From NCBI GenBank assembly GCA_010093815.1, contig ML996567.1: a DNA stretch of 64,000 nucleotides. One strand, 5' to 3'. Source of the DNA: Pseudovirgaria hyperparasitica (lineage: Eukaryota). The notes beneath the pieces were generated by a model. It did not search any database and was not told the origin of the DNA. It saw nothing but the letters and a program-made list of their open reading frames with translations. The position numbers and the translations under genes were made by a program. Below are positions 3,258 to 61,040 of the stretch, piece by piece; the stretch's first letter is position 1, and each line of letters starts with the position of its first letter.

Positions 3258-3261
3258 ATTA

Positions 3262-3413
3262 TATAAGGAGGTAGGCTCTATATACCAACCAACTATACTA
3301 AAAGGACCGAATCTTAAAGCTACTACTTTAAGGGTGGAGCACACTACTTATATACGACTACTACACACATGTAGAATCAACTGGCAGGCCACGTGCTCCT
3401 CACGTGCCTAACA
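3262..3413 (-). mobile_element. LTR of the TRIM family (152-bp variant)
   Basis: Aligns with 50989-51129 and 51428-51568. Carries an extra 11 bp (CACGTGCTCCT) near its CCTAACA end. Confidence 0.9.
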
Positions 3414-24926: not shown

Positions 24927-26471
24927 ATGACAACATCAATATCGACCATGCAGTCCTTACGATCATTCCCAAACGTCCAATCTCTAATCGACAGACTTCT
25001 CGATAGTGCTGTTCCTGGCGAGGTTCTCCCAAGCCAGCAAACGCTTGCTGAAGCACGAAACCAGCTCTTCAAAACTCTACCATCGAACGGCATAGGTCTG
25101 GAAAGCACCATTGAACATCTGACCCGGTATATCAAACCAGCACTCAATGGCAACAGCCTCACAGCTAATTACTATGGCTTCGTTACCGGAGGATCCACCG
25201 CGGCAGCATCTCTGGCAGACAATCTAGCTACATTGTATGACCAGAACGTACAAGTCCATCTGCCCAACGAAACAATCGCCACTGACCTCGAGGACGCAGC
25301 ATTACGCATGCTCTGTAGTCTCCTTTCTCTGAATGCCGAGGAATGGCCACATCGAACCTTCACTACCGGTGCAACAGCCAGTAACGTGATAGGTCTTGCA
25401 TGCGCCCGCGAGGCCGTCATCTCCAAGCACCTCACAGCGAAGGGCGCATATTCCGTGTCATGTGTTGGCGAGACTGGTCTGGTCAAAGCCATGCGCGAGG
25501 CTGGCGTAGAGGACATCCAAGTCCTAACGTCAGCACCACATTCCTCCCTCAGCAAAGCAGCCAGCATACTCGGCTTAGGAAGGTCATGCATTAAACTCAT
25601 CGGCCACGAGAACGCACCGCATCTCATAGACCTTGCCAAACTGGAATCCGCGCTTCAAGAGCCCAATGTTGCAAGTATTGTGGCAATATCATGCTCTGAA
25701 GTGAACACAGGCAAATTCGCAACCCATAGCGAAAGCCACATGCGTGAGATTCGCCACCTGTGCGACCGCTTCAATGCTTGGGTACATGTCGACGGGGCGT
25801 TCGGCATCTTCGCACGACTCCTGACGGATGCAGATGACGCTTCTCTCATCCAGGCTTCTTCCGGAATCGAACTCGCCGACTCCATCACCGGAGACGGTCA
25901 TAAACTCCTCAACGTTCCATATGATTGTGGATTTATACTTACGCGTTCCCGTTCAAACGCTGAGCAGGTCTTTCAAAACCCGAACGCGGCATATCTCAGT
26001 GGAGGCGCAGCGAGCGACATCGCATCCCCCCTTAATATTGGCATCGAAAACTCACGTAGGTTCCGTGCTCTGCCAGTCTATGCGACTCTCGTGGCATACG
26101 GCCGCCATGGCTACGCAGAGATGCTAGAGCGCCAGGTAAGACTGTCACGTGGCATCGCGAAGTACATAACAGAAAGTGCACACTTTGAGCTTCTGCCAGA
26201 GAGAACCGTAAAAGAAGGCATCAAAGATAGCTTCGATGATGTATTCATTATCGTACTCTTCCGCGCACGAGATGCATCTTTGAACGATCGGCTAGTGGAT
26301 CTGATAAAAGCGACGGCAAAGATATACGTTTCTGGCACTGCATGGAAGGGTCTGCCAGCATGTCGTTTCGCCGTATCAAATTGGGCGGTTGAGCCAGAGC
26401 GTGATCTCCAGCTGATCACGTCGGTCCTTGAAGGCATCGTACACGACTGGAAAAGTAGGACTGCTGCATAA
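24927..26471 (+). CDS. Group II pyridoxal-phosphate-dependent decarboxylase
   Basis: FTTGATASN, HSSLSKAA, WVHVDGAFG and DGHKLLNVPYDCG (PLP lysine) motifs. Single exon. Confidence 0.92.
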   Translation: MTTSISTMQSLRSFPNVQSLIDRLLDSAVPGEVLPSQQTLAEARNQLFKTLPSNGIGLESTIEHLTRYIKPALNGNSLTANYYGFVTGGSTAAASLADNLATLYDQNVQVHLPNETIATDLEDAALRMLCSLLSLNAEEWPHRTFTTGATASNVIGLACAREAVISKHLTAKGAYSVSCVGETGLVKAMREAGVEDIQVLTSAPHSSLSKAASILGLGRSCIKLIGHENAPHLIDLAKLESALQEPNVASIVAISCSEVNTGKFATHSESHMREIRHLCDRFNAWVHVDGAFGIFARLLTDADDASLIQASSGIELADSITGDGHKLLNVPYDCGFILTRSRSNAEQVFQNPNAAYLSGGAASDIASPLNIGIENSRRFRALPVYATLVAYGRHGYAEMLERQVRLSRGIAKYITESAHFELLPERTVKEGIKDSFDDVFIIVLFRARDASLNDRLVDLIKATAKIYVSGTAWKGLPACRFAVSNWAVEPERDLQLITSVLEGIVHDWKSRTAA

Positions 26472-42988: not shown

Positions 42989-43093
42989 TACGCGTTTAGC
43001 CACGTGAAGAGCCACTAGAAAAATGCAGTGGCCCAAGATATTGAATTGAACATGCCAAGAGCATAATTGCTTAGGATAAAAGTGGTTACTAAT

Positions 43094-45075
43094 TGTTGTC
43101 GGAAGGCACTTTGAGTAAGAGACACTGCTTCCTAAACGGGACTAGTGTCTAAACGGTTAAATAGCTTCGACTCTGTCTCCTAGAACTTAGTTCTCTATAT
43201 ACTTATAGAATATACTTAATAACCTTAATTACGTCTCCATTTCTCTTATAATAGATTATAAGCCCGGTACTTTACTATAAAAGCCTTAAAACACCTCTTT
43301 ATTAATAAAAACTATTATATTTTAATAAAAAATAAGTCCCTTTTCTAAACTTTAAGTTTTAATATTAACCTTATTAAAGTTTTTACTTTAACTACTCTAT
43401 TAACTCTCTGCCTCTATATTATTCTTACCGTTCTTCTACGTCTTTTACCCTTACTACCTTCCTTATAAATAAGTAATAAGTAGAAAGAGTCGGAATAAGA
43501 AACTATTAGTTCTATATAAAGAAAAGAGAAGAAACTTAAGGAACTTAAGGAACTTATTAATAATAAACATGTCTATTAACTTTAAACTCGATCTATTCTC
43601 TCTATCTAAGCTATCTTTAAGAGGAGAAAATTTCCCTAAGTAGAGATTAGCTTAGATAATCGTATTTAAATATATATAATTATAGATAATAGTCTCTAGT
43701 AGAGTTATTAGACCCTTTAGTACTAGAGTTACGGATTTATATATAGATATAATAGATTAGAATATAAAGGATAATAAGGTAATAATTATATTACTCTTAT
43801 TAATATATTAAGATCTTATTATAGATCTTACTTCCTATAATATAGTAGTAGCTATATAGAGTTATCTATTATTATATTTTAACTATAATATAGATAATTC
43901 TTTAATATATCTATTTAGATTACTTACTAACCTCCGCTATAAAGACGGAGAAGATATCTATAAATATATTAATAACTTCTATTATACCTAGATGCGAATA
44001 GTAAAAAGATATACTACTTTATCTTATATAGTTATAAAAGTAATACGTCTAATCTTTAAGTCTAAAGAGATTAAGGGCTTATTCTTTCTCGTCTTATTAT
44101 CTAATACTATAGACTATATTATTAATAATTTATCTACTCGAGATATATTACATTTTTAAGATATTAAGCTAAAGATACTTAATCTAGCTAAGAAATATAG
44201 TATTAAGCCTAATACTATAGGGTATAAGGCCGGTTATAAGGGTAAGTCTAGTTAGCCTTCTAAGTTAAAGAAGTCTAACTCCGCCTCTATCTCTTCCTTA
44301 GATACTAAGTATACCTAGTATAAGAAATATAGCTTCCCTTCTAAAGGCTATAAGTATTAGAACTACTATAAGCTTAAGGCTTCTAAGAATAATAATAAGT
44401 CTAAAGGTAAGTCTAAGAATAAGAAGTCTTCCTCTAAAAAGGACTTCTTAAGTAAGTAATAAAAAGCTAATAAGGCTAAAGTTATTAAAATTTTAGATTC
44501 TAAATCTAACTCTAATAATAATATCGTTAGTTTCTTTGTAACTATAGCTAATATAAATAGTAAGCGATCTTAAGTAGTAAGTTAGCCTCTTATTTTAGTA
44601 ATATTTTTAGACCTAAGTATTAAAGCTATTAGACTTCTTATAAATTCTAATATTACTACGGATATCTATAATTAGATTTTTAATTCTAGAGTCTTAAGAT
44701 ATATATTAGGCTATATAGATAACTTCTCCTCTCTAGAACCGCGTAACTTAGATAATATATTAATTACGAATTATTAGAAGATTCCGATTAATAGTATTAG
44801 AATAGTTTTCTTAGATTATATTCTCTTAGATAGTTCTATAAAAAAGGTTAAACTTACTAATATTCTCTTTAGTAAGTAACTAAATTCTATACGCCTTTTC
44901 TTCTAGTTATATATTAGAAATTAAGAGTATAGTTTAAGAGTAAAAGGGAATAATCTCTTCTTATATAACTACTACGGATCTAAAGTAATATAGGTAAAAT
45001 TCTATAAGGGCCTTATAAAGATTCGCCTACGCTATATATCTCCTTCGCTTCTATTATATACTATAGTATACTTTA
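43094..45075 (+). mobile_element. Truncated RIP-mutated Ty1/Copia retrotransposon (5' LTR 43094-43253, PBS, gag, protease)
   Basis: LTR starts TGTTG. It is followed by GATTATAAGCCC (RIP form of the Copia PBS GGTTATGAGCCC). Gag ATG ~43568, zinc-knuckle remnant ~44310-44368, W-I-F-D-S-G-A-S-R-H-M protease remnant ~44673-44705. Cut off by the family C LTR. Confidence 0.85.
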
Positions 45076-48000
45076 TATTAGGACTTAGCCTTAGGTAGGA
45101 CCCGACCTACACGTACCTTAGCTAACAGGGTTAGAAGGTAACGTGAAGGGCGGTAAATAGTTACGTACTAGATAGATTAGCGTCCCTTTATATATATACT
45201 CTTAGATTCCTACTAAAAGGGTTCGGTAGTAATTTATTCTATAATAGAATATACCCTATTATTCTATCTAACTATACTACTATCTAATAACTCTATGCTT
45301 ATATTCGAATTACTCCCTATATAGTACTATAGTTAAGATAGTCTAACTAGAACCGAGAAGGTCGACACGATCTACTATAGGGATAAGTAATACTATATTA
45401 AATAATAGGGATCCTCTATAATTAGTATTAATCCTAGCCGTTTCTAACCGAGAAGTAGAAATATTAGACCGAATTACGGAGCTTTTAGATGAAGAAATAG
45501 TAGAGACGCTAAGTAACGTCTAATAATATAAAGCCGGATAATAAGTCGTGGTAGAGCTACGTAAGGTATTATAATAAACTATTACTAAACTTTAGGAATA
45601 TATCGCGAATTAGGCTTAAGAGATTTAAACCCTTAAAGAATAGGTAGAACGCGCGAAACTCCTTATAAAGAGACGAGAACTTAAGGAGTCTCTTAAAGAA
45701 CTACGCCGAACGATAGTAGGTAGACGACTTCCTATACTAATTTAGGCGGAATTAGTTCACCTACTATTAGAGTTATAATAATCTACTATATACCTAGCCG
45801 CTTCGTTACTAATTTACCCTACTTCTTCTCTAGATATACTAAAATCTAAAGACCTAACTATATTTATAGAGAAGAACTAAAAGGAGTAGAAAGACTAGAA
45901 GAGAGACTACGAAAAGTACTTCCTCGATAACCCTCTACTCTTTTCTACTAAAGTATAACGTATTTCGTTCGGAGAACGATATCTAGGCTTATAATCCCGC
46001 GATTAATAGGATAGATAGAAAGAAGTATAGCTACTATCTACGATAACCTAGGAATATTTAGCTATATTTATACTAAACACCCTCGGAACGGATAGAGAAC
46101 GTGAAAGAAAGGTACTATCTAAGTTAAGAAGCGTAGTATAATAACCGAACTAGACACCTACTTAACTACTATAATACCTCTAAAACCTATAGAATAATAT
46201 CCCTATACTATAGAAAAATATTCGTATATTCTAGTTTCGCGAAGTACTACTTCCGTTAATCCGCGAAAGACTAGAAATAGTATTATTAAGTTTTAACTAT
46301 CTATATAAATTAGAGAAGAAAGCTAATAAATACTACCGCATCCTTAAGGAACGTAGCTCTCTAGGTAAAACCGATAAACCCTATACGGGTTAGAAACGAG
46401 GTCAATCGAATACGTTTAATTAAGAGTAACCTTACTATAATTAGTACTAGAAGAGCGTAAATCGGGGTAGAAACGCGTTAAGAGGATACTAAAATAATTA
46501 AGGCGGTACTTCTTAACGTAGAAAAGGATAAGGCATAGGCTTAAATATAATACCTATCGTAAAATAGTAGGATTATAGCGCACTTTATTACTATAAGTAT
46601 AGAGAAATAGAATATATTTCGCCTAACTATAAGAATCCGAAAAAAGAGTAGGCTAGTATACGAGATCTAACCGCGTTCTTAGCTAAATTATATATACTTA
46701 GAAGGAGCCGTAGCGCCTTCCGGTAAGTAAAGACCTAATATTACTAAAAGTATTATTACCTATAGTAAATGGTAATAAAACTATATAGGCCCTCGTGGAT
46801 ACTAGTATAGAAGATAACTATATTTCGTCGATTCTTATAAAGGAGTATAGATTATCGTATAATCTTAGTAAAGTTAGCTAAACTATTATAGTTAATAGAT
46901 ATAAAGTTAGAACTTTAGGTAAAGCTATAATAAATTACGAAGTTTATAACTCGAAGATAATAAAATAGTAGATGTCTAATAAATTTATCGTGGCTAATAT
47001 TAGCTAATAGAATATAATTCTAGGGATGCCTTAGCTTAGACGCCTAAACCCTATTCTTAATTTTTAGAAGGAGATATTAACGTTTTAATAATACTATAGT
47101 AAATTATACTAGTAAGTTATAACTATTAGTAAGGAGGTATAGAACCTTACCGTACGGACCCGATTATTACTAATCTATCTTACGTCCTTATTAATTATTA
47201 ATAAAGATAAGAATAATAGTAATAATCGGGGCGAAGACATACTATCTAATATATATTCGTAGTATACGGATGTGTTTTCGGTAGAAGATACGTTACTTCT
47301 CCCTAATTACGGGCTATATAAGCTAAAGATCGAGCTTAAAGAGGGAGTAGACGTCTCTTATAGTCTACTTTACCTACTTTTAAGACTAGAACTCGAAGTT
47401 CTTTATAAATATATTAAAGAATACCTTAGAAGAGGCTAGATACGTCGTAGTATATTATCGGCTAGTATATCTATTCTCTTCGTAAAGAAGAAAGACGGAA
47501 GTTTATATCTATACGTTAACTATCGGGCACTAAATATAGTAACTAAGAAGAATCGTTATCTATTACCGCTAGTTAGTAAATCTTTAGACTAATTAATAAA
47601 GGTAAAGTACTTTACGAAGCTAGATTTATAAGATATATATTACTAGCTTTAAATTCGTCGTGGAGATAAGTGGAAAACTATATTTCGGACTAGATATAGT
47701 TATTTTAAGTATACTATTATACTATTCGGGCTAATAAATACGCTAGAAGCGTTTTAAGGATATATTAATACTATACTTATAGGATTACTTAATATGATTT
47801 ACGTAGTTTATCTCGATAATATACTAATTTACTCTAATAGTATATAGAATTATAAAGAATACGTGAAATCAGTGCTAAATTATCTAAGGTAGTATAAACT
47901 CTATATAAAATTATCTAAATACGAGTTTTACTAATAAGAAGTTAGGTTTCTCGGCTTTATCATAATATATAGCGGCCTAAAAATAGAGCCGGAGCGTGTA

Positions 48001-49253
48001 AAGACTATCATAGAATAGCTAGAACCTACTACTATACGTTAAATTAGAATATTTATAGGTTTCGTAAACTATTATTATAAATTTATTATAGGCTTCTTAT
48101 AAATTACGGCGCCGCTTAATAAACTTATAGAGAATGGCGGTAAAATCTCTATAGATAGGCGAGTATAGCGTAAAGCTAAGTTAGTCGGGATATAGTTAAC
48201 ACTAGAAGCGCGAGATACGTTCTAATTATTAAAGAATTACTTTATAACTACGCCGATTCTTAGGCATTTTAATTCTAAGAAGTATATTTAGGTTAAAACT
48301 AACACGTTAGAATTCGTAATTACTAGAATTATTAGTTAACCGTATAAAGATATAAAAGATAAGGTATAATAGTACCCGGTCGCCTTCTTTTTCTATAAAA
48401 TAGTAGATATAGAGACGTGTTATAATATACACGACTAGAAACTACTCATAATTATTAAGAGTTTTAAGTAATAGTAATATTATTTAGAAGGCTCCGTACA
48501 TTAGATCGAATTATTATTAGATTACGTATAAGGATTATAGACGTAGAATAGTAGTCTAACAGGTCATAGAAGGATTCGGGAATATATTTAAAAGGGTAGT
48601 CTACTCTCCTAACGAGGTTGATTCCTAAAGAGTAGGAATTAAGTATATGCGGCCTACTTATATAGTGGTCTCGCTTATTCTAGCTAGCTTAATCTAGGTC
48701 CACCTATCACGGACCGTACTAGACCATAGTAGTCTAGTTAAGTCTATTCTAGTATTAGCCCTAATAATATCCTTCTTCTTTTTATGCTTCGCCCTAAAGT
48801 ACTTAGCTATATATAAATCTATAATTCTATAAGCGTTATGTTTATACGTGTATCTAATTAAATCCATATAACGTTATCGATAGTCTTTACATTAGTAAAC
48901 TTAAGCTCTAGTTTACTTTTATTTATATACGCGCTTATCCCTTACTTTATAGCTACTGCCTTAGAGGTAGCTCCGCGGGTCATGTAACCGCTATATTAAC
49001 TAAGCTTATATTTAGTTCTCTTATTCTAAATTTTCTTCTCTAGTATATCTACCTTACTCTTAAGGTAAGTCGTTAATTCATATACTATCTCCTTTAGTTT
49101 AGATCTATTCGGGTCTAGAGTAGTCTATTTTTATTAGAGCTGGTCCTATATAATCCATTCGCGTTATTACGGTTACTAATTTAGCTTTTTTAATCGCCTT
49201 TAAGACTAAACGAGTATTCTACTCTTAGATCTCTAGCTAACGTGTATATATAG

Positions 49254-50558
49254 ATATCTAATACTAGTTCTATTCCTAAGCCTGCCTCCTCCTCTCGTAA
49301 GACTCGCTCTAAAGGGATTACCTCTACCCCGGCTACACCGGCTAAAAAATCCACTTATTATAGTAGTATAAAGGCGCGCTCTAAGTTAGAGAAGAAGGTA
49401 GCTAAGGCTACTACTACTATTACTACTAACGTGGCCACTAGTCGCTCTAATCTAGGTAATCCTAGTACTAGTATTGCGGAAGAGATAGCTATAAAGCCTA
49501 CCTACACCTACTCGCGCCGTCTATCTACTCTACCTCCTTTAGAGAATGAAGAAGATCTTATTATAGACGATAATCGAGAGTTTACGCCTTCGCCGCCTCG
49601 CTCTAAACGCCGTTCCTCTTTTTAGTCTAATATAGACTAACTTAGTCGCTCTAGGTTCTTTTAGGACCTTAATATTTACTCTAAACCCAGCCCTAGTAAT
49701 AATAAGGCCTAGGTCGCCGAAGATACTAAACGTAGTCGCGGTTTACGCTATAGGAAAACAGCGAACTACGGTTTAATATACTTTAAGTATATTAAGGCTT
49801 ACGCTACCGGCTCTAAATATCTCTTCTACTCTAACTCTAGTATTAGCTACTACTCTACTAACCGCGATAGGCCTATACGTCTAATCTTTAAGCTCCCTAC
49901 CTACTACCGCCGCTATACCGTCCTTAGTAAAGTTTATCTTTAGGTAAGTCTATTAGACTATTTTAGTCTAGGGTAATCTAAAGTTATCCATGCTAATACG
50001 TTTTTAGGTTTCTATTTATATATAAGATATATATAATAATCTTCGCGTCCGCGAGACTCTCGGCGGTTCTAGCGGTTACCTAGCTTCTATACGTAGGGAG
50101 TTTAGGGAGCGCTATAAGCTCTTCCTAGAGGTTATTAAAGTGTAAGTTTAGAAACCGTTAATTATTATTAACCTTAGCTTATAATTTTTAGTCGCCGCGA
50201 GATTCCTAGCGCTTAGGCTACCTATTCTAGGGAGTCGGTTTTAGCTACTAAGGCCGTAGAAGAGATTCGTACTATTCCTTCCCGTCCGCCTCGTACTACT
50301 AACGGGTCTTATAAGAGATCTACTAGTTCTCCTTCTAAGTTACCTTATAAGAGGGTATATATTCTATTCTAGATTATTCTAGACCGTGTTAGCTAACTTT
50401 AGGTCTAGTCGCTCCGCTCTAGCACTTAGTCGTCGTCTTACTAGGCTCTAACCGAGCGCGTGGTTACTCTAGAGGATAAGGTCTCTAACCTCCGTCGCTC
50501 TATTACTCGGTTAGTTTATCCGCTATACTCTAAGAGTAATAATAAGATAGAGGAGTAG
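49254..50558 (+). pseudogene. Antisense 4-exon accessory gene of family A (exons 49254-49943, 50008-50141, 50192-50354, 50403-50558), about 380 aa, Zn-cluster-like plus coiled coil, RIP-mutated
   Basis: Frame is kept across three GT..AG introns with branch-like motifs. Internal stops are only TAA/TAG (RIP products). The start is ATA (presumed RIP'd ATG) directly after an acceptor. Confidence 0.75.
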
Positions 50559-50809
50559 CTCTATGGCTCTGTTTGCTAGGGTTTCTATATAGTATATATT
50601 GGCTCTATCTACCTAGTTTCTATCCGTTTTAGTCCTTTTTAGACCGTTTAGATACCTATCTACTAGTTTTCTAGTAATTTAATTCTTAACTTAATGATAT
50701 TATGTGCGTTCTTATTTATTCTATGACTATTGAATTTTAGGTTCTAATTTCCTTTAAGTTACTTAAGTATAGGCATTATATATAAATTAGTTTATCTCTC
50801 TAAATTATA

Positions 50810-50859
50810 TTAGAGTACCCGAACTAGTGGCCTAGTAGTTATTAGTTCGGGTACTCTAA
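50810..50859. repeat. Inverted repeat / hairpin with a 17-bp perfect stem
   Basis: TTAGAGTACCCGAACTA ... TAGTTCGGGTACTCTAA. Confidence 0.85.
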
Positions 50860-50988
50860 CCTTTTATATTATATATCACGAGTTCAATTCCGTAGTGGGG
50901 TACCTTTTTAGTTTCTTAGTCCCATGTTCTTCTCGTGTGTAATGGTCTATATTAGTCCATTCTAGACTTCTCTATGTTATTCTATTAT

Positions 50989-51568
50989 TGTAAGGAGGCG
51001 GGCTCCACGTACCAACCAACTATACCAAAAGGGCCGAATCTTAAAGCTACTGCTTCAAGGGTAGAGCACACTACTTATATACGACTGCTGCACACATGTA
51101 GAATCAACTAGCAGGCCACGTGCCTAACAATATCTCCCCTTTTCGAAGGCGCGTGTCCTCACGCGTCGTGGGCATGCTACCTTACGAAAGATAAACTAAA
51201 CTAGCCGTAACGGGCCTAGTATAAACGATATGCACACACAACTAATACTCGCAATGCCGCCTCTAGCACTAGACACGCTAACTTACCGTAGTAACGTTAC
51301 TACCATGTTATCCGTTACGTGTATAAAGTATATGTGACGTGGTAAGCTAAACGGAATCGTGCGAAATTTAATAACGGTTAACTAGACCGAGAGTTGAACC
51401 CGTGACCCCGTAGTAGCTTTAAGATTATGTAAGGAGGCGGGCTCTACGTACTAACTAACTATACTAAAAGGACCGAATCTTAAAGCTACTGCTTTAAGGG
51501 TGGAGTATACTACTTATATACAACTACTACACACATGTAGAATCAACTGGCAGGCCACGTGTCTAACA
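50989..51568 (-). mobile_element. TRIM (non-autonomous miniature LTR retrotransposon), 580 bp
   Basis: 141-bp TG..CA LTRs at 50989-51129 and 51428-51568, 298-bp non-coding interior. ATTAT TSD at 50984-88 and 51569-73. PPT AAAAGGGGAG on the minus strand. The empty site is visible in the paralog at ~61071-61090. Confidence 0.93.
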
Positions 51569-54500
51569 ATTATGATATATCGCGTCGCGTGCCTATAACG
51601 GTTATTTACGTTTTCTTCGCGTTTAGTAACCGTATATCGCTTAAATTATAGGGCTACCTTATAGAGTTTTCCTAGTATGCGTTTAGGATTTATGATTCGA
51701 CACTTCGTTTTCTATAGTATTCTTCTTCTTTTTATAACGGCCCTAACGGTACTAGGTTTACGGTAGTAACGTGTTATCCTATAACCTCTATTTATATATA
51801 GCTATCGCGGTACTTAAGATATGTACCATAGGTTCCTAGGTATCCTTATTCTCGGTATAGTTCTTCTAATAGATTTAATACTTTTAGATACCGTTCTCGT
51901 CGAGCCTATATTCGATAATATAGTCTACTTCGTACACGTCTAGTCTATCTTAGGGTATAATAGAGTGTAATTACACGTTTATATATTTATACACGTTAGG
52001 TCGAAACCTTTTAAGTAATAAGATATAGAATACGTTATAGACTTTCATGTCGTTTCCTAGGTCGAGCTTATAGACTCTTATACTAATATAACGTTTAATT
52101 TAGAAGGGACTAGTCATTTTATAATCGAGCTTTTTATTCACTCGCGACGTTTATATATTACGGACGTTAAGGAGAACTTCGTCTCCCTCCTCGTACGCTT
52201 AATCTTTAACTAATCTATTATAGTACTTTATATATAACTTATTCGCTTACTAGATTATTACGCGATAGTTACGTGTGGTTTTAAAGATTTTAATTGCCAG
52301 TTCCTACGCGTGGACGTTAACATCTATTATTCGGTCGAACTAGACCGTGTAAGGTTCGAAACCTATCCTTAGACTACGTTCTAGGTTCGCCTAGAAGGGC
52401 GTGACACCTATTATACTATAACGACTATTATTATACGCGAATTCTACTATACTTAGTAGAGAGGCCTAGTTATCTTATTTAAAATTATAGAATGCACGAA
52501 GGTAGGCCTTAAGCGTTTAGTTCTATTACTCTATCTAACTATCTATTTATAGATGGAATACTATTAACATGTTTCTATTTATACCGGCTATTTCATAGAA
52601 TAACGTCTAGAATTTAGATATAAATATACTCCCTCGGTCCGTAACGATCCTTTTTAGTATACTATAGACCTTAATAATCTTATTCTAGAATACTTATACT
52701 AGTTCTTTTAATGTAATCGTCTTCTATATAGGGACGTACCTAGATATCTTTATAAGTCTATCCACGATAATAAGAATTAAATTATAACTTATTCTAAGCA
52801 TCTCGCTTGGAGGTAAGTTAACTATAAAATCTATAGTAATATCTTCCTATATAAAGAGGGGGACTAGTAGAGGCTGTAAGTTCCTATATAGCTTATACCT
52901 AGGTGCCTTTATTCTTTAATAAATCGGATAAGTAGCTATCCATTCTTCGACGTACTTAGGTATATCTTTCTAAAAATAGTACTAACGAATTAAGCTTAGG
53001 GTGCGTATATACCCGAAATATCCTACTAGGTTAGCGTTATGGTATCGGCTAACTATAGTAAATTATGCGTTGCCCGTCGGTATATAGTACTTTCTATTAT
53101 AGTAGAGTAAGCCGTCCATGAAGGTCTACTTATAGTCTACTTCGGTCTATAATAACCTATCTTACTATATTTTACGTAACTTTAAAACTATTAGGTCTAT
53201 CTTTTATAGATCTATAATTAACTAGGCGAGGTCTACTTAATATATACGCCGGGTACTATCGCCCTCCCTAATAGCGCTGATAAATGGCTCGCTAGGGACT
53301 TCGGTACCGCGTCTTTAGTTACCGGCTTTAGTCTTATAAATTTAATTACCGGCATTAGCGTTAGTATCTCGCTAATCGTCGGATAACTTATTATCTAACC
53401 TCGTCCTTAAGAGTTAGGCCTATAGCTACTATAATTCTAGGCGCCTTCTTTATAGTTAGGTCTTCTTAATATTCTATTAGCTAGGTTTATACTTCTAGGT
53501 CGATGGTAGATTATAAAGTAGAAATTTATAAGCTACTTAGCCTATCGAACCTATCGATGATTTAAAACCGTCGTGCTTATAAACCCCTTTAAGTTATAGT
53601 AATTAGTTAGTAACTTAATATTATATATAGTACCTTTAAGATAATATCGCTACTACTTAAACGACTCTACTATTACTAGTAGCTCTTGGTTATAAATAGT
53701 ATATCTAGTCTTAACGTCGGCCATCTTACGCGAGAAGAACGTAACTAGATACTATTAGACCTTTTTAGACTCTATTAGTCTAGGCTAGGAGAGTATACCC
53801 GAGATTATAAATTCTAATATATTAGTTTCGACGCGAATAGATTTAGTTAGGTCGAAGTATACTAGTAATAGGGCGGTTATAAATGCTTCTTTAATCTTCT
53901 CGAAGGATGTTCTTTCGACCTTAGTTAATTTAATAGATTATAATTCGATATTACGCTGTTTCTGTCCACCATAGACCGTAATAGACGAGTTAGTAGTAGT
54001 AGTGCGTGTATTAAGTGGTGCGGCTAAACGGGAGAAGTATTTAATAAATTTTTAGTAGTAGTTGGCGAAGCTAATAAAGACACGTATGTCTCGAACGGAT
54101 TTTGGTTTAGGCTAGTCTATAATAGTAGTAACTCTATCTCTCTCTATGGTTATACCTTAATTAGTAATAACGAAGCTAAGAAAGTTAATATAGTCCTAAT
54201 AGAACTCGCATTTAGATAGCTTAATATATAGCTTATACTTTTCTAGCCTATCTAGGACTATACGTACGTGCTAGATATACTTCTCCTCGTTATCTAAGAA
54301 GATAAGAATGTTATCTAGGTACACGATATATATCGTGTCGAGTAGGCCTACTAGCGCGTTATTAATATATACTTAGAAGGTGTCTAGCGCGTTAGTTAGT
54401 CTAAAAGGGACTACGGTATACTTAAAGTATCTATAACGGGTCCTAAAAGCCGTTTTCTATTCGTCGCCTTCCTTAATGCGAAGGCGATAGTAGGCGTTAC

Positions 54501-57500
54501 GTAGATCGAGCTTAGTAAAGATCTTTACATGTTCTAGTCTATTAATAGACTTAGAGATAAGAGGTAGTAGGTAACGATTCTTTCGTGTAATATTATTTAG
54601 GCTATAGTAGTCGATATATAGATAGAGGCTCCTATTCTTCTTCTTTATAAAGAGGATTAGAGCTCCGGCTAGAGATATACTAGGCCTAATCTATCCTCGC
54701 GTAAGGTTCTTTTCGATATATTCTTAAAGGGCTTATAACTTAGGTTCTAAAAGAGGGTAGATGGGTCCATGTAGAGGTTACTAGCCATCTTCGAGATTAA
54801 TAGTAAGGTTAGTAGGTTAGTATTAAGGTAGTTCGGAGGAATCGATTACTAACGCGATATATTAGTATATTTTATACTAATATAGTAGGTTTTCGTCTAC
54901 TTTAATACTAAGCTTACTATTTTATATAAGTAAGAGTATATAGATAGTAGAGATTACCTTCTCGTAATCCTTCTAGAATTATTCGTCGTTAATAAGCTAT
55001 ACTAGTTCCTATTAAGGTAGGTTTATACGCTAGCTAGCTGTCTTCTTAAGGAAGTCTAGTTTTAGGTTATATTTCTTAAGCTATAGTATACCTAGGATTA
55101 TATCGAAGGGACTATCTACCACGATAAAGGTTAAGTAGTAGAGTTTCTATTTCCCTCCGCTATTCTAGATGCTATATTTAATAGTATAGGTGCCGTATAA
55201 CTTAATAGGACCGTTAATGCTATGGAACATAGTACTTATTAAAGCTTAGATGTCGGCGTTAAGTTCTTATGCTTATTAGATTAACATGACGTTAGTAGCC
55301 GATCTACTATTAAGTATTATAGTCTAATATTATCTACGAGGGACCTCGATAGGTCTAGCCTATAGTTCGATATACTATTTAGCGGATTACCCCTCTATTA
55401 TAGTCGCGCCTATAAGTCGCGAGGGTTTCTTATAGACTATTAGTTTTTTATATTCTATACTAGGTAGTTAGGCGCGATGTATCCTAGCTACTAGCACTTA
55501 TAGTATATAACTAGTTAGTTAGTTATATTAGCACTTAGTAGCTTCCCCGAACGGTACTTAGGTACTATATAGTCTATTCTATTATAGGTATAGTAAGTAA
55601 CTTTAGGTCGTTTATACGAGTCGGTCCTCGTATCTTAACGTGTCGATTAGTAGGGAGATCCACGATATAATCCGCGTGGTTTTGAATTTAAGGCGTAGTA
55701 GTAGCCTCGTAACGTCCCGCGAGATCTATTACTAAATTAGTTTTAGTTAGATAATTTTACGTTAGATTAGATCATTAGAGATAGTCGTGCACTAGCGCGG
55801 CGTTAATTATTTATTATACGCTAGTATCGCTCCGCGAGGTTTATAAGAGCTTAGAGATCTATAGGGATTATTATTATAAGGTCGAGATAGTCCTTTATAT
55901 TTAGGGCAAGGGACCGTTTAAAGTCGTTATACTATCGAATTATATAATCTTCTTCGGCTTCTCTCTAGAGGGGCCGAAGGTATTTAAGGAGTTATAATAG
56001 TAACTAATTATCTCGTTATCGAGTCTTAAAGATATAGCCCTAGGCCTAGTCGCGTTATTTAGCCCTATCGCTAAAACATTAGAGGAGAAATTCGGTGAAC
56101 GTGTCCTAGTTATAGGCATCCTTAGGATATTCGATTCGGTATACTATCTAACGTTCTAAAGGCGTTAGGTCGAGGTAGTTCTAGGCGAATCTAATTTTAT
56201 CGCTGTCGTTCGTGAATAGATAGAAGAATCGGCTATATTAGTAAGCCTATATATAGAAACTCTTTCTACTTTTACCATCGAAGTAAGGTAGTTTCTTAGG
56301 TCGGGGTAATTAGGATAGTAGTAGACTAGGATAGATCGTTTTAGTTAGTATAGGTCTATATAAATGTAGATTAGTCGTTACTAGAACTAAAGCGCATAAT
56401 ATAGCTTTAAGTCTTATAGTACGTCCTCGAGCTTCGTCGAGTTCATATAGTTATTACTTAAGTTAAACCTATTATTACCTCTCTTCGTGTAGTCTAGTAT
56501 ATACGTTATTATAAGGTATGGTTAACGTTAGGTAATTCTAACGGATTAACTCGTTAACGTTAATAAGGTCTAGCCTTATATTAAGGTTAGGTCTAGTATA
56601 GTTTAAACTAGACCGAGATAGAGTATAATAGACTCTATCCTTATATTCTATAATATCTTCTATAGTTACACGGAATATCGTATAAGTTATTAGTACGATA
56701 GCCTATAAGGTATAGTTATTAGTAGGGGTAGTTATAGGTAGACTATTCTCCTCGTTTAGGTTAGGAGAAGGTCTACTATAAGAGGCGGTGCCACGAGTGT
56801 TATAATGAGTGGTTAGAGCTATTTCTATAAACTACCGTCGTGCTATATAAAGAGGAATTAAAATATAAGGATTATAGACGTAGGATAGTAGTCTAATAGG
56901 TCATAGGAGGATTCGGGAATATATTTAAAAGGGTAGTCTACTCTCCTAACGAGGTTGATTTCTAAAGAGTAGGAATTAAGTATGTACGGCCTACTTATAT
57001 AGTGGTCTCGCTTATTCTAGCTAGCTTAACCTGGGTCCACCTATCACGGACCGTACTAGACCATAGTAGTCCAGTTGAGTCCATCCTAGTGTCAGCCCTA
57101 ACATTACGTAAATCTATATTACTTTATATTAACTAAGGTCCTTAATCGCCGATAAGTACGTTAGGCTAAGTAGATATTAATATTTAACTTTAAAATCTTA
57201 TATAAAGCTAGAAGAGAGAATAAAGCTAATCCTCTATCGCGGCGTAAAGATTATAAGAAATCGTTATAGAATAACGTAGATAGTTAGTATAAGTTAGACT
57301 ATACTATACTTTAGATACTATAAGACTAGTTATCTAATAGAATACTAGAAGCTAGAACACTTTCGGCGATTCTCCGCGGGAATTAGAGCGGGTATTAAGT
57401 AATCTAAATAAACGTCTAAGAAACTAAGAAAACCCTCGAAGACTTAATTAAATCTACCTAGAATTCCGATATATTAGTAAAGAAAGTCATAAGCATAAAA

Positions 57501-59346
57501 GGAAGCGCTATAGATCCGCCATAGTTATTAAGGTAGGAACGACGATCAGACGCGATCTACTTCTAAGGCCGACTCTATATACCGGAAGACGGCTTACGAA
57601 TCGATGTTTTAAGGGAATAGTATAATTACGCGTTAGTAGGGCACTTCGGCATTATAAGGACGGTCGATTTAATCCGAAGGACGTACGACTAGCCGGGTCT
57701 TTATAAATATATAAAAGACTACGTAAAAATGTATAACGTTTGCCAGTATACGAAAGTGTATAGATACTTACTATATGGCGAATTAAGGCTATTACCTATA
57801 CTAAAGGAGGCATAGAAGGAATTATCTATGGATTTTATTATAGATCTACCCCTAAGTAAGTATTCTAGGTATATTTATAATAGTTTACTTATAGTTCTAG
57901 ATAGATTTACGAAGATGTTATACTATATCTCTATAAGAAAGATAATCCAAGCACCGGATCTTATAGATATACTACTCCGTGATGTAGTTCGGCTCTATAG
58001 TATACCGAATGGTATAGTTTCGGATAGAGGTCCGTAGATAACGTCTAAATTTTAGAAGGATTTCTACTATACGCTAGGAATCAAGCGGAAACTTAGTACT
58101 ATATTCTACCTATAAATAGATAGGTAGACGGAGCGGTAGAATTAGATAGTCGAGGCGTATTTACGTGTATATTATAACTATAAGTAGAATAACTAGGTAA
58201 AGTTAGTCTGTATCGCGGAATTCGCGTATAATAATAGCCGATATACGTTAACCCACGTAAGTCCGTTCAAAGTAAACTTCGGTCGGAACCATAATGCGTA
58301 GTTCTTAGGGACTTAGTTCAAAGTAGAACGATCTAACGTTAAAGTAATAGAAATTACTATAGAACTATTCTAAACGTAAAGAAGCGTTATAAAGTTACTA
58401 TAAGATACTACGAATTATAGTAAATCGCACTATAATAAGGGTAGAAAACCCATGATCTTTAATGTTAGGGACAAAGTTTTACTAAATAGCAAGAATATTC
58501 GTAGTATTAGGCCAAAGAAGAAGCTTAACTATATAATGATAGGTCTATATAAGATTACTCGTGTAATTAATAACTAGGTATACGAGTTATAACTCCCTCC
58601 TACGTTAAAGATATATAATATATTCCATATTACGCTTCTCGAGCCATTTCATGCCTTATTATTACCGGATCGTTCTGAATAGATACTACATGAAGTAGTT
58701 ACGTAAGAAGGTATAGATATCTACGAAGTTAAGTAGATACTTAGCTAGTAACGCGCCGAAGATGGCACGTAGCTATATAAAATTCATTAGAAAGGATATA
58801 ATTCTAACGAAGATACTTAGGAACCTGTAATAAACATTAGTAAAGTAGCGATATTAGTATATAAGTAGCGATTGGTAAAGGAAGCCGTAGAATCACGGAG
58901 AATTATGCTAAAGTACGGCGATTCGACGTTTTTTAGTATAGTTCGGCGCCGAGAACGGCCGCCTAAAAGGAAGAAGGTAAAAGAGACATAGATCTTTAAA
59001 ACATTCTAAGGAATTAAGGAACTTCCTTAGAAAGTTTAAACTTAGAACTTTAAAAAATTTAACTAAAAAAGAGACTTAGAAAAATGATTTACTAAGAGAA
59101 ATGGACATCGAAAATCGGTGCCGATTAGTATAGATTAGTATAGATTACTAAAGAGATTAAAGAAGTTATTATTAAAGAAAGATAAAATTAAGAAAGCTAA
59201 AAGAAAATATAAAGATCTATATAGATCTATATAAACTCGTACTAATCTATCTAGAAGAAGTAAGATCGCTTTAAAATTAAAACCGAAAAACTAAAACGCT
59301 AGATAAAAGAGATATATTAGTACCGATCGGTATAGATCTAAACCGA

Positions 59347-60328
59347 TTAAGTCGGAGTAGGAGTAGAAGTACTAATTACCGCGATAGTTACATCTAATTC
59401 CTTCTGCTGGTTCTTATTTAGTATAGTATAGAGCTTTATAATATAAGTCTCTAGCCTTTCGTTCCGACGCTATAAATTCTATATAGCGTGCCTTATAACT
59501 ATGAACTCCTCTATAGAAACCTATAGAGCGGCGGGACCCGGGACGGAGAGAGACGGACCAGCGCGGGCACGCTAAGAATTATATAAATTAGCGAAAAGAT
59601 TTAACGATTAGTATAGAACCATATACCTTTAGTATAGAAACTTCTAGATTAGAGCTATCTTCCCTAAATTTACGGCTCTTTAGCACGCGCGAGGAAGAAA
59701 CCTTAGCCTTTTTACTAGAACCTTTTCTAGGAATTCTAATATCGCTAGTATATAGAAAGAAGTCCGAAGTAGTAGAGATTTTAGTACTATTATAGAGATT
59801 AATATATATTAGTAAGAATCTATAACGATTTAAGAAAAACGATATTACCTAGTAATCGCGGTAATAATAGCTATAGTAGATTCTAATAAATCCTTACGGA
59901 TCTTATTAGAATCGTACTCCTAGGCGTAACTCTTACCTTAGGTATATAGCTCGTAGAAAGCCTTCTCTAAGGCGTTACGATCGGTAGTACTACGCTCCTT
60001 ATCGGTAGGGGTTACTAGAGGCCTAGTAGTAATCTATACCGATATAAGTAAATCTACGTAAAGTTCTTCGAACTTAATTAAATACCTATAAGTAATAACG
60101 CTTCTTAGTCATGTAAGTACCGTATATTATAGATTTAGTACTACCGTGAGTAATATACAACGGAAAGCGACAACCATAATAATATATAGCTAGATTATTA
60201 GAGCCCGGCCTAGGTCGGGGTAGATCGATAGCTTTCGACATGTCGGTGACGTATATAAGACAGGGATTATTCGAAGGCGCCTGTTTCCGCGCCGATTACT
60301 TTAGAGCGTCGAGATTTTAGGAAACCAT
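59347..60328 (-). pseudogene. Antisense 4-exon accessory gene of family C (exons 60328-60086, 60033-59849, 59786-59627, 59571-59347), about 270 aa, Zn-cluster-like plus coiled coil, RIP-mutated
   Basis: Intact ATG at 60328. Three 52-62-nt GT..AG introns keep the frame. Two Cys TGT codons survive (60262, 60172). Internal stops are only TAA/TAG. Confidence 0.78.
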
Positions 60329-61040
60329 GTTAAGATTATTATTAATTTATATAGATTATTACGAATTATATTATTACTAGCTAAGGACGGCACGAAAATT
60401 AGTAAATTGCGTAAATCGCACTAAATTATAGTAAATCTATATAAATCTATATCTATAAGGATCGGGTGATATATCTAATAATCTAAAAAACTCTATAAAG
60501 AGTTAAGAAGTTTTTTAAAGAAAGGAATATTTCTAAGAAAAGATTTTAATATAGGTAGCACCCGGGCTTACCTAATTATATTACGTGATACGCTAGGCCT
60601 AATTAGGTAATCTCACCTATGTAAGAAGTTAAGATGGATAAAATTTGGTTTATTAGGAAAACGCTTATATAAATCTTAGATCGGCGAATATTAGTAAGTA
60701 TCTAAGACGAAGCGTAGAGAACGACTAAGGTCTTACGAGACTTAGGATAGGGATATAGAGATAGATAATAATCTAGGTCGCTAAGGGTAGCTTCCTAGAG
60801 GGAAGGGATAATTATTAGGACTTAGCCTTAGGTAGGACCCGACCTACACGTACCTTAGCTAATAGGGTTAGGAGATAATATAAAGGGCGGTAAATAGTTA
60901 CGTACTAGATAGATCGGCGTCCCTTTATATATATACTCTCGGATTCCTACTAAAAGGGTTCGGTAGTAATTCGTTCTATGATAGAATACACCCTATTGTT
61001 CTATCTAACTACACTACTATCCAATAACCCTATTCTTATA

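Follow-up and report, generated by a model that had tools for sequence, protein, structure and literature searches.

This study concerns positions 49254-50558 of a 64,000-nucleotide stretch of fungal DNA (the window), which lie on the plus strand inside a complete minus-strand Ty3/Gypsy retrotransposon, designated family A. We interpret them, with moderate confidence, as an antisense accessory gene of a chromovirus-type Gypsy element, killed by repeat-induced point mutation (RIP), the fungal process that changes C to T and G to A. The candidate falls within one element bounded by long terminal repeats (LTRs), between pol and the polypurine tract and on the opposite strand, as an additional antisense open reading frame (ORF) 3' of pol (aORF-3R class) would; the location and orientation given in an initial annotation of this DNA were thus right. 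The copy in the window is a dead pseudogene, in view of its RIP stops and lost ATG, without direct functional consequence for the host. The proposed gene and the non-coding stretches on either side of it are as follows:

48785..49253, plus strand: upstream non-coding stretch (no periodicity over 48769-49253, p 0.44; GC 0.31)
49254..49943, plus strand: exon 1, 690 nt, 230 codons, with four internal RIP-type stops and TAG as its last codon
49944..50007, plus strand: proposed intron 1, 64 nt, GTAAGT..GCTAAT..TAG (strict intron-like pattern; GC 0.30; the best frame shifts)
50008..50141, plus strand: proposed exon 2, 134 nt, one stop (frame scores -1.1 versus -15.1 and -11.0; GC 0.40)
50142..50191, plus strand: proposed intron 2, 50 nt, GTAAGT..TAG (GC 0.22; the frame shifts back)
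50192..50354, plus strand: proposed exon 3, 163 nt, one stop (frame score +19.4 versus -19.3 and -31.1; periodicity p 6e-6)
50355..50402, plus strand: proposed intron 3, 48 nt, GTATAT..GCTAAC..TAG (GC 0.29)
50403..50558, plus strand: proposed exon 4, 156 nt, three internal stops and a terminal TAG (frame score +1.6 versus -11.0 and -20.2)
50559..50983, no strand: spacer separating the antisense gene from the pol end that converges on it (no periodicity, p 0.44)

The clearest coding signal is that of exon 1. Specifically, the stretch 49254-49625, of 123 codons, is the longest of the 4837 stop-to-stop stretches found in the six frames of 24.9 kb of AT-rich DNA, the next one having 89 codons, and a second stretch in the same frame (49713-49943, 76 codons) ranks sixth. 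In none of 1000 dinucleotide shuffles of exon 1 did any frame have as few as five stops or remain open for 123 codons. In addition, the 3-base periodicity of exon 1 (chi-squared 64.8, p 5e-12) is the top value among 103 windows of 690 nt, and internal stops occur in it about 1.7 times per 100 codons, compared to 3-10 times in the true frames of this element's pol. All together, openness, shuffle test, periodicity and low stop density point to an ancestral coding frame, and we consider it quite likely that exon 1 was once coding on the plus strand. The frame had been annotated as running for 230 codons from 49254, and in that form the claim does not hold, as stops are found at 49623, 49638, 49662 and 49710, and the last codon is TAG (49941-49943).

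The same measurements bear on two explanations that dispense with an antisense gene. According to the first, there is no gene at all, and openness and periodicity derive from the composition of a non-coding 3' region (a C/T-rich strand with short ACT-type repeats). The plus strand is indeed pyrimidine-rich (GC skew -0.19, AT skew -0.09 to -0.23), the N-terminal half of the exon 1 product is of low complexity with an ACT run, no homologue or Pfam family was found in the searches described below, and the segment 43920-44840, in which a gene was not identified, is periodic as well (chi-squared 41-53). A purely compositional origin, which we rate as improbable, is nevertheless difficult to reconcile with an openness reached by none of the shuffles, with a stop density below that of the true pol frames, with the lack of any tandem array within 49254-50558 in a search by Tandem Repeats Finder, and with a codon-position signature that is the same in the four exons and gone in flanks and introns. 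According to the second explanation, the coding strand is the minus strand, and a third sense ORF, env-like or of another kind, follows pol in the region. Over exon 1, two minus frames do run with about 2 stops per 60 codons, and three related metagenome loci carry sense ORFs of 190-307 codons after pol; the plus frame, however, shows 0-1 stops per 60 codons where the minus frames show at least 2, the best open stretch is 67 codons on the minus strand versus 123 on the plus strand, and the donor, branch and acceptor motifs, together with the frame shifts, are sensible only on the plus strand. We therefore regard a sense ORF as highly unlikely.

The DNA of the antisense stretch is saturated by RIP. 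In the window, a GC-rich block at about 4-42 kb (GC 0.47-0.63) is bordered by AT-rich DNA at 1-4 and 43-64 kb (GC 0.25-0.40). Over 49254-50558 the TpA/ApT ratio is 2.43 and the (CpA+TpG)/(ApC+GpT) ratio 0.11, the corresponding values in the GC-rich block being 0.66 and 1.24. The product of the four-exon model (381 codons) contains not a single Cys, His, Gln, Trp or Met, a loss that follows from saturating CpA-to-TpA and TpG-to-TpA changes at TGY, CAY, CAR, TGG and ATG codons. The coding signal, in the form of openness, periodicity and exon/intron GC contrast, is thus still readable after RIP has erased the codons for these five residues.

Downstream of exon 1, the initial annotation had placed three introns, which would make this an intron-containing gene; the coding frame of exon 1 stands, on strong statistics, while the introns and exons 2-4 are backed by indirect evidence. 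The sequence itself reads as annotated, with GTAAGT at 49944 and 50142, GTATAT at 50355, GCTAAT at 49990-49995 and GCTAAC at 50392-50397; the acceptors, all TAG, end at 50007, 50191 and 50402, and the last-exon peptide LTERVVTLEDKVSNLRRSITRLV is followed by TAG at 50556-50558. The two GTAAGT donors are a sequence that RIP cannot alter, and GTATAT at the third donor can be explained as the RIP product of GTATGT. The exon lengths (690+134+163+156 = 1143 nt) give 381 codons in a single frame through the proposed splices, with mutually consistent splice phases. Eleven stops, including the terminal one, fall within these codons (9 TAG, 2 TAA, 0 TGA); beyond exon 1 the internal ones number 1, 1 and 3, at 50023 in exon 2, at 50214 in exon 3 and at 50406, 50427 and 50442 in exon 4.

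When spliced, exons 2-4 are periodic (chi-squared 32.4, p 1e-5), with p 0.44 in both flanks, and the third codon position is T-rich and A-poor in all four exons. A composition model trained on exon 1 chose the frame of the gene model in all three later exons, and the frame it favours along a sliding window changes at introns 1 and 2. Moreover, GC is 0.42, 0.40, 0.47 and 0.46 in the four exons, compared to 0.30, 0.22 and 0.29 in the introns and 0.31 in the flanks.

Several observations weigh against the gene as modelled. The first codon, at 49254, is ATA, and half of the exon 1 product is the low-complexity sequence mentioned above. Stop counts in the model frame compared to the other frames are 1 versus 2 in exon 2, 1 versus 2 in exon 3 and 4 versus 4 in exon 4, including the terminal stop. 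Exons 2 and 4 are near zero in the composition score, exon 3 alone being clearly positive, and the composition test is partly correlated with stop avoidance, hence dependent on the frame choice of the initial annotation. As for the introns, one of the three (intron 1) fits the strict intron-like pattern, intron 2 has no CTRAY branch motif, and intron 3 has its branch motif 5 nt from the AG and a donor hexamer, GTATAT, that is common (44 on the plus strand in 24.9 kb); since its length is a multiple of 3, intron 3 is also beyond the reach of frame tests. The low-GC tract that follows exon 1 extends about 30 nt past the acceptor, to about 50040, and the acceptor of intron 1 is uncertain because the first 30 nt of exon 2 are very AT-rich. 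Finally, the plus strand has six strict intron-like patterns, four of which bunch at 44242-44675, where no gene is evident; in view of this cluster, arguments from intron motifs in RIP-mutated DNA call for caution.

Around that cluster, which consists of four overlapping GTAAGT..CTAAY..YAG patterns, the segment 43900-44850 has a Lys/Ser-rich plus-strand frame, and its 690-nt windows from 43920 and 44150 are those with the periodicity of chi-squared 41-53 given above. A Pfam search in all frames of 43000-45075 returned no family.

These points lend themselves to a reading in which the antisense gene is real and its exon structure wrong: either exon 1 (about 229 codons) would be the whole coding part, the rest being 3' untranslated region, or other splice sites would apply. 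Nearly all the statistical signal lies in exon 1, and a stop codon ends exon 1 right before the proposed donor, which fits a gene that finishes there, as do the weak scores of exons 2 and 4, the extended low-GC tract and the single well-formed intron. On the other side, exon 3 has a strong signal in the predicted frame, the frames switch as introns of 64 and 50 nt demand, GC dips at all three introns and periodicity is lost beyond 50558. Weighing both sides, we consider a wrong exon structure of this kind unlikely, and we hold only tentatively, a little short of an even chance, that the four-exon model is essentially right.

The element that hosts the candidate gene consists of the following parts:

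48522..48526 (left copy) and 57104-57108 (right copy), no strand: target-site duplication TTACG, the same pentamer flanking both element ends
48527..48770, minus strand: 3' LTR of family A (48527-48764 and 56864-57101 are 94% identical)
48771..48784, minus strand: polypurine tract, a 14-nt purine run (reverse complement) directly adjoining the 3' LTR
50989..51568, no strand: secondary insertion of a miniature LTR-type element of 580 bp, flanked by the duplication ATTAT (50984-50988 and 51569-51573)
51574..56863, minus strand: gag-pol of family A (reverse transcriptase (RT), RNase H, integrase and chromodomain-like end), from Pfam matches and frames
56864..57103, minus strand: 5' LTR of family A, from LTR self-comparison

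Self-comparison and reading of the junctions define family A as a complete minus-strand element at 48527-57103 with LTRs of 240-244 bp. The LTR ends read TA..TA at the 3' LTR and TA..CA at the 5' LTR, as expected for TG..CA after RIP. Pfam matches on the minus strand comprise RVT_1 (2.8e-21), RT_RNaseH_2 (1.1e-15), Integrase_H2C2 (5.4e-7), SH3_Tf2-1 (6.4e-9) and also RT_RNaseH, and the order RT, RNase H, integrase, together with LTRs, polypurine tract and 5-bp duplication, is that of Ty3/Gypsy. A chromodomain-like string lies near 51800-51950, the Pfam families Chromo and rve remaining above E 0.01 in this mutated copy. Pol ends near 51650, about 2.3 kb separate it from the 3' LTR once the miniature insertion is discounted, and the candidate gene occupies the middle of this interval on the opposite strand. 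An inverted-repeat search found no terminal inverted repeats bounding the 2.2-kb region. In the spacer between the end of the antisense gene and the end of pol, a perfect 17-bp inverted repeat with a 16-nt loop is present at 50810-50859. At about 53300-53400, the RT-RNase H and integrase parts of family A are best read in different minus-strand frames, which is either a frameshift in this copy or a family trait.

The miniature element has two terminal repeats of about 143 bp, TG..CA ends and a 292-bp core, and is less RIP-mutated than its surroundings (GC 0.44, CpA index 0.59). A third, partial family A copy, from 61041 of the window onward, is without the 580-bp insertion, and in the source-genome sequencing runs described below position 50983 is joined straight to 51569 in three contigs of run X1 and one of run X2; its absence from other copies and contigs indicates a later insertion. 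One extra terminal-repeat copy at 3258-3395 adjoins the LTR of another family A copy, and runs X3 and X4 hold the terminal repeat in other flanks.

Family A itself splits, at 48526/57104, a plus-strand Gypsy element, B, with LTR-like repeats at 45076-45303 and 60813-61040 and RT near 47-48.5 kb. In element B, the chromodomain end (about 58900-59100) and the 3' LTR lie about 1.7 kb apart, and in this spacer an antisense stretch of 86 codons (59588-59848) is open, ranking third in length in the RIP-mutated DNA but without clear periodicity. As to the host, a pyridoxal phosphate-dependent decarboxylase encoded at 24927-26471, in the GC-rich block, has its best named relatives, 59-63% identical, in Ascochyta, Didymella and other Pleosporales, and this single protein is the basis for calling the host a Pleosporales-like ascomycete. 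Scans of the AT-rich block for tRNAs and Rfam families gave no matches, and among the published Leptosphaeria maculans repeats (PMC3105345, Table 4) no family fits an element of about 8.0 kb with 240-bp LTRs. In conclusion, the host element is probably a chromovirus-type Ty3/Gypsy of a Pleosporales-like fungus.

Further copies of the region were found in sequencing runs of the source genome. Two DNA runs of one sample (X1 and X2) contain 0.69 and 0.50 of the region's words; with a likeness threshold of 80%, 11685 contig pieces of the first and 4511 of the second match, and none of the 30 bins of 48000-52000 is left uncovered. No RNA run was among those listed, an outcome that is silent on expression. 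Transitions account for 265 of the 268 differing places in X1 (C>T 83, G>A 85, T>C 51, A>G 46), and contig pieces with 15-26 differences span the boundary between LTR and region. Among the places listed, one indel falls inside the region, a G inserted behind 49806 in a minority of the depth. A few contig joints skip 977-2317 nt; one of them, 48768-50991, corresponds in our reading to the LTR/miniature-element junction at about 3259 of the window and need not mark a deletion form. Coverage, prevalence of transitions and rarity of indels thus indicate that the region is part of a high-copy family whose copies differ by RIP and not by indels. The initial annotation had named family A copies without the region, or frame-breaking indels in the consensus, as grounds for giving up the gene; as far as this can be tested, the region is present in many copies, and the single-base minority insertion is the one such indel listed. 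In run X3, of undefined kind and with the same species label, a 193-nt contig is about 92% identical to the window at 50469-50623 (155 nt), which takes in the last part of exon 4 and the first part of the spacer behind it, and then becomes unlike the window; runs X3 and X4 cover only the miniature LTR-type element plus this one 155-nt piece.

The absence of a second copy of 49254-50558 from the window belongs with the points against the antisense gene, and so do the homology searches. A word-indexed protein search with exon 1 yielded 320 candidates, none at E 0.01 or below; HMMER gave 0 matches at E 0.001 or below against 1.84 billion representatives; and a metagenome scan with exon 1 returned 423 stretches fitting the pattern, none of which was confirmed. 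Translated in six frames, with stops written as X, 48769-50983 gave 0 Pfam families, and comparison with 79 related metagenome loci gave a best tblastn E of 0.35 and nothing by tblastx. When both sides were RIP-saturated in silico, the best real match equalled the best reversed-decoy match (30.9 bits), the pol control in the same comparison giving 363 matches of up to 315 bits. Furthermore, a RIP-mutated 566-residue piece of pol still matches 464 proteins at E 1e-10 or below, almost all of them chromodomain Gypsy polyproteins, with PF00385 in 113 of 120 pol relatives among the matches listed, so the missing homologue is not due to RIP alone. The antisense protein is then either fast-evolving, lineage-specific or unannotated elsewhere.

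The 79 metagenome loci, retrieved with an alignment of 15 pol relatives, show what can lie in this part of related elements. In 17 of them an LTR pair and a non-negative pol-to-LTR gap are present, and in three of these 17 (L001, L011 and L042) gaps of 1.9-3.0 kb between pol and the 3' LTR hold antisense stretches of 104-369 codons. Two antisense ORFs at L042:6157-8036 (minus) can be joined by a canonical 59-nt intron, GTAAGT..TAG, into 607 codons, and two at L001:6066-7012 (minus) by an equally canonical 47-nt intron, GTATGT..CAG, into 300 codons. Comparison of L011 with L013, sister loci holding two copies of one related chromovirus, gave, for antisense stretches, dN/dS (nonsynonymous to synonymous divergence) values of 0.04 and 0.08 with dS of 0.54 and 0.82, and 1.28 for a third stretch. 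The antisense stretches with the two low values, at L011:7101-7868 and L013:6901-7778 (minus), carry a C-x2-C-x7-C motif and look like a genuine antisense gene under selection that belongs to none of the known families. Pfam gave nothing usable on the relatives' antisense ORFs, five of them tested at E up to 10, and the scores of the L042 ORF in the ESM Atlas did not exceed 0.81. In an all-against-all comparison of 93 antisense stretches of the relatives, only close family pairs match, which speaks against a shared antisense protein family. The sense ORFs mentioned earlier belong to L050, L068 and L074, where they follow pol and precede the 3' LTR, at 11.4-12.6 kb of each locus; L068 and L074 share the Cys/His-rich string 'HWTACYDDYC'. 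Taken with the candidate in the window, these unmutated relatives suggest that antisense accessory genes are commoner in fungal chromoviruses than annotated; in one pair of them, purifying selection is strong.

Two features of the predicted product deserve mention. A Tyr cluster at 49779-49853 (Y-x2-Y..Y-x2-Y-x6-8-Y) is the sole match to its pattern in 49.8 thousand six-frame codons, the pattern having been defined only after the cluster was seen; speculatively, it may be a former Cys cluster comparable to the C-x2-C-x6-7-C of the relatives' antisense ORFs. In exon 4, a heptad-like C-terminal stretch covers 22 residues of RIP-altered sequence; the pattern may be due to chance or may, more speculatively, be a dimerisation element. 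The product was also compared with two known protein classes, both of which were rejected. A Zn(2)-Cys(6) cluster protein (C-X2-C-X6-C-X5-12-C-X2-C-X6-8-C) does not agree with a product without Cys, in which reading Tyr as Cys gives X3 and not X6 in the first half, and Pfam on the candidate at E up to 1 showed no match for Zn(2)-Cys(6). A bZIP or HBZ-like protein is not supported either, as there is no Pfam bZIP match and what stands before the heptad stretch is not a basic region but a Ser-rich segment containing three stops. The ESM Atlas gave no usable match for the 76-residue stretch.

The lack of relatives and the proposed introns could also be accounted for by a passenger, namely a host gene fragment or a piece of another mobile element's ORF (for instance gag-like, with a zinc knuckle), captured once, in plus orientation, by the family's ancestor and functionless for the element. 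Introns are typical of cellular genes, the candidate has no likeness to the antisense ORFs of the 79 loci, which are themselves unrelated between families, and the Tyr cluster could be a mutated Cys/His motif; in addition, transduction is named as one origin of additional ORFs in the review PMC11963269. Nevertheless, the searches revealed no host paralogue or other homologue, tblastx of the region against the window gave 0 non-self matches and hence no likeness to gag or pol, and terminal repeats of a nested element are lacking. The region is moreover present in many copies, whereas transduced genes usually occur in one or few according to the same review, and capture and a later function are compatible. 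A functionless passenger therefore appears improbable to us.

For the RIP-killed antisense accessory gene, which we prefer, the following course can be proposed. The gene would have been transcribed from a promoter of its own, within the roughly 470 bp that adjoin the 3' LTR, towards pol and converging on it, with about four exons and three short spliceosomal introns. Those introns would survive retrotransposition because they are antisense in the genomic RNA of the element and hence never spliced from it; in this way the antisense orientation would allow a retrotransposon-borne gene to keep spliceosomal introns. The predicted product is a basic, Ser/Thr-rich protein of about 380 residues and of no known family, and by analogy with the antisense accessory ORFs of plant elements and retroviruses its likeliest role, admittedly a speculation, would be to regulate, in the nucleus, the expression or transposition of the element itself. 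RIP would then have turned every Gln and Trp codon into a stop, ATG into ATA, and Cys and His codons into Tyr.

A wider generalisation, which we put forward as an improbable one, is that fungal chromoviruses commonly carry fast-evolving, intron-keeping antisense genes. Their products would be small nuclear metal-binding or dimerising regulators, HBZ-like in function, that tune element transcription or blunt host genome defence, and the Tyr cluster (Y-x2-Y ... Y-x2-Y-x6-Y) would be the ghost of a Cys cluster. If this were true, such genes would be systematically missed, since repeats are masked before gene calling.

Antisense passenger genes are already known from a few plant and fungal elements. 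The retroviral gene HBZ of human T-cell leukaemia virus type 1 (HTLV-1) is a spliced antisense gene that encodes a basic protein with a heptad zipper-like stretch. The candidate resembles it in being antisense, spliced (as proposed here), located at the 3' end of a reverse-transcribing element and predicted to encode a basic protein with a heptad stretch; there is, however, no sequence relation and no Pfam bZIP match, so the parallel is one of possible working and not of membership. Retroviral antisense genes such as HBZ are mentioned in PMC11963269.

Among plant elements, maize Grande, rice RIRE2 and Silene Retand carry antisense ORFs between pol and the 3' LTR; these are found in most copies of a family, and a nuclear or regulatory role is suspected (PMC7264820 and PMC11963269). 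They share with family A a long pol-to-3' LTR region with an antisense ORF, and they differ from it in belonging to plant non-chromovirus lineages. Many ORFs of Retand have a TRP28 domain (PF04195), whereas no Pfam family is found in the candidate, and the region of Retand measures 2.9-6.6 kb versus about 2.2 kb here.

The closest parallel is fungal. In the Boty element of Botrytis and Sclerotinia, an antisense gene, brtn, occupies the interval from pol to the 3' LTR; PMC7264820, PMC8365987 and PMC4227169 credit it to Zhao et al. 2011, Virology. A literature search that excluded supplements listed no paper on an antisense gene in a Dothideomycete Gypsy element. Boty and, probably, family A are alike in being fungal chromodomain-type Gypsy elements in which pol and the 3' LTR enclose an opposite-strand gene that belongs to none of the known families. 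They differ in host, Leotiomycetes for brtn versus a Pleosporales-like (Dothideomycetes) fungus here, and in that the copy described here is RIP-destroyed and proposed to have three introns; the two genes are likened by position and strand, not by sequence. Very few fungal retrotransposons are listed as having an antisense accessory gene, and the candidate, with its Pleosporales-like host, adds a second fungal class to them.

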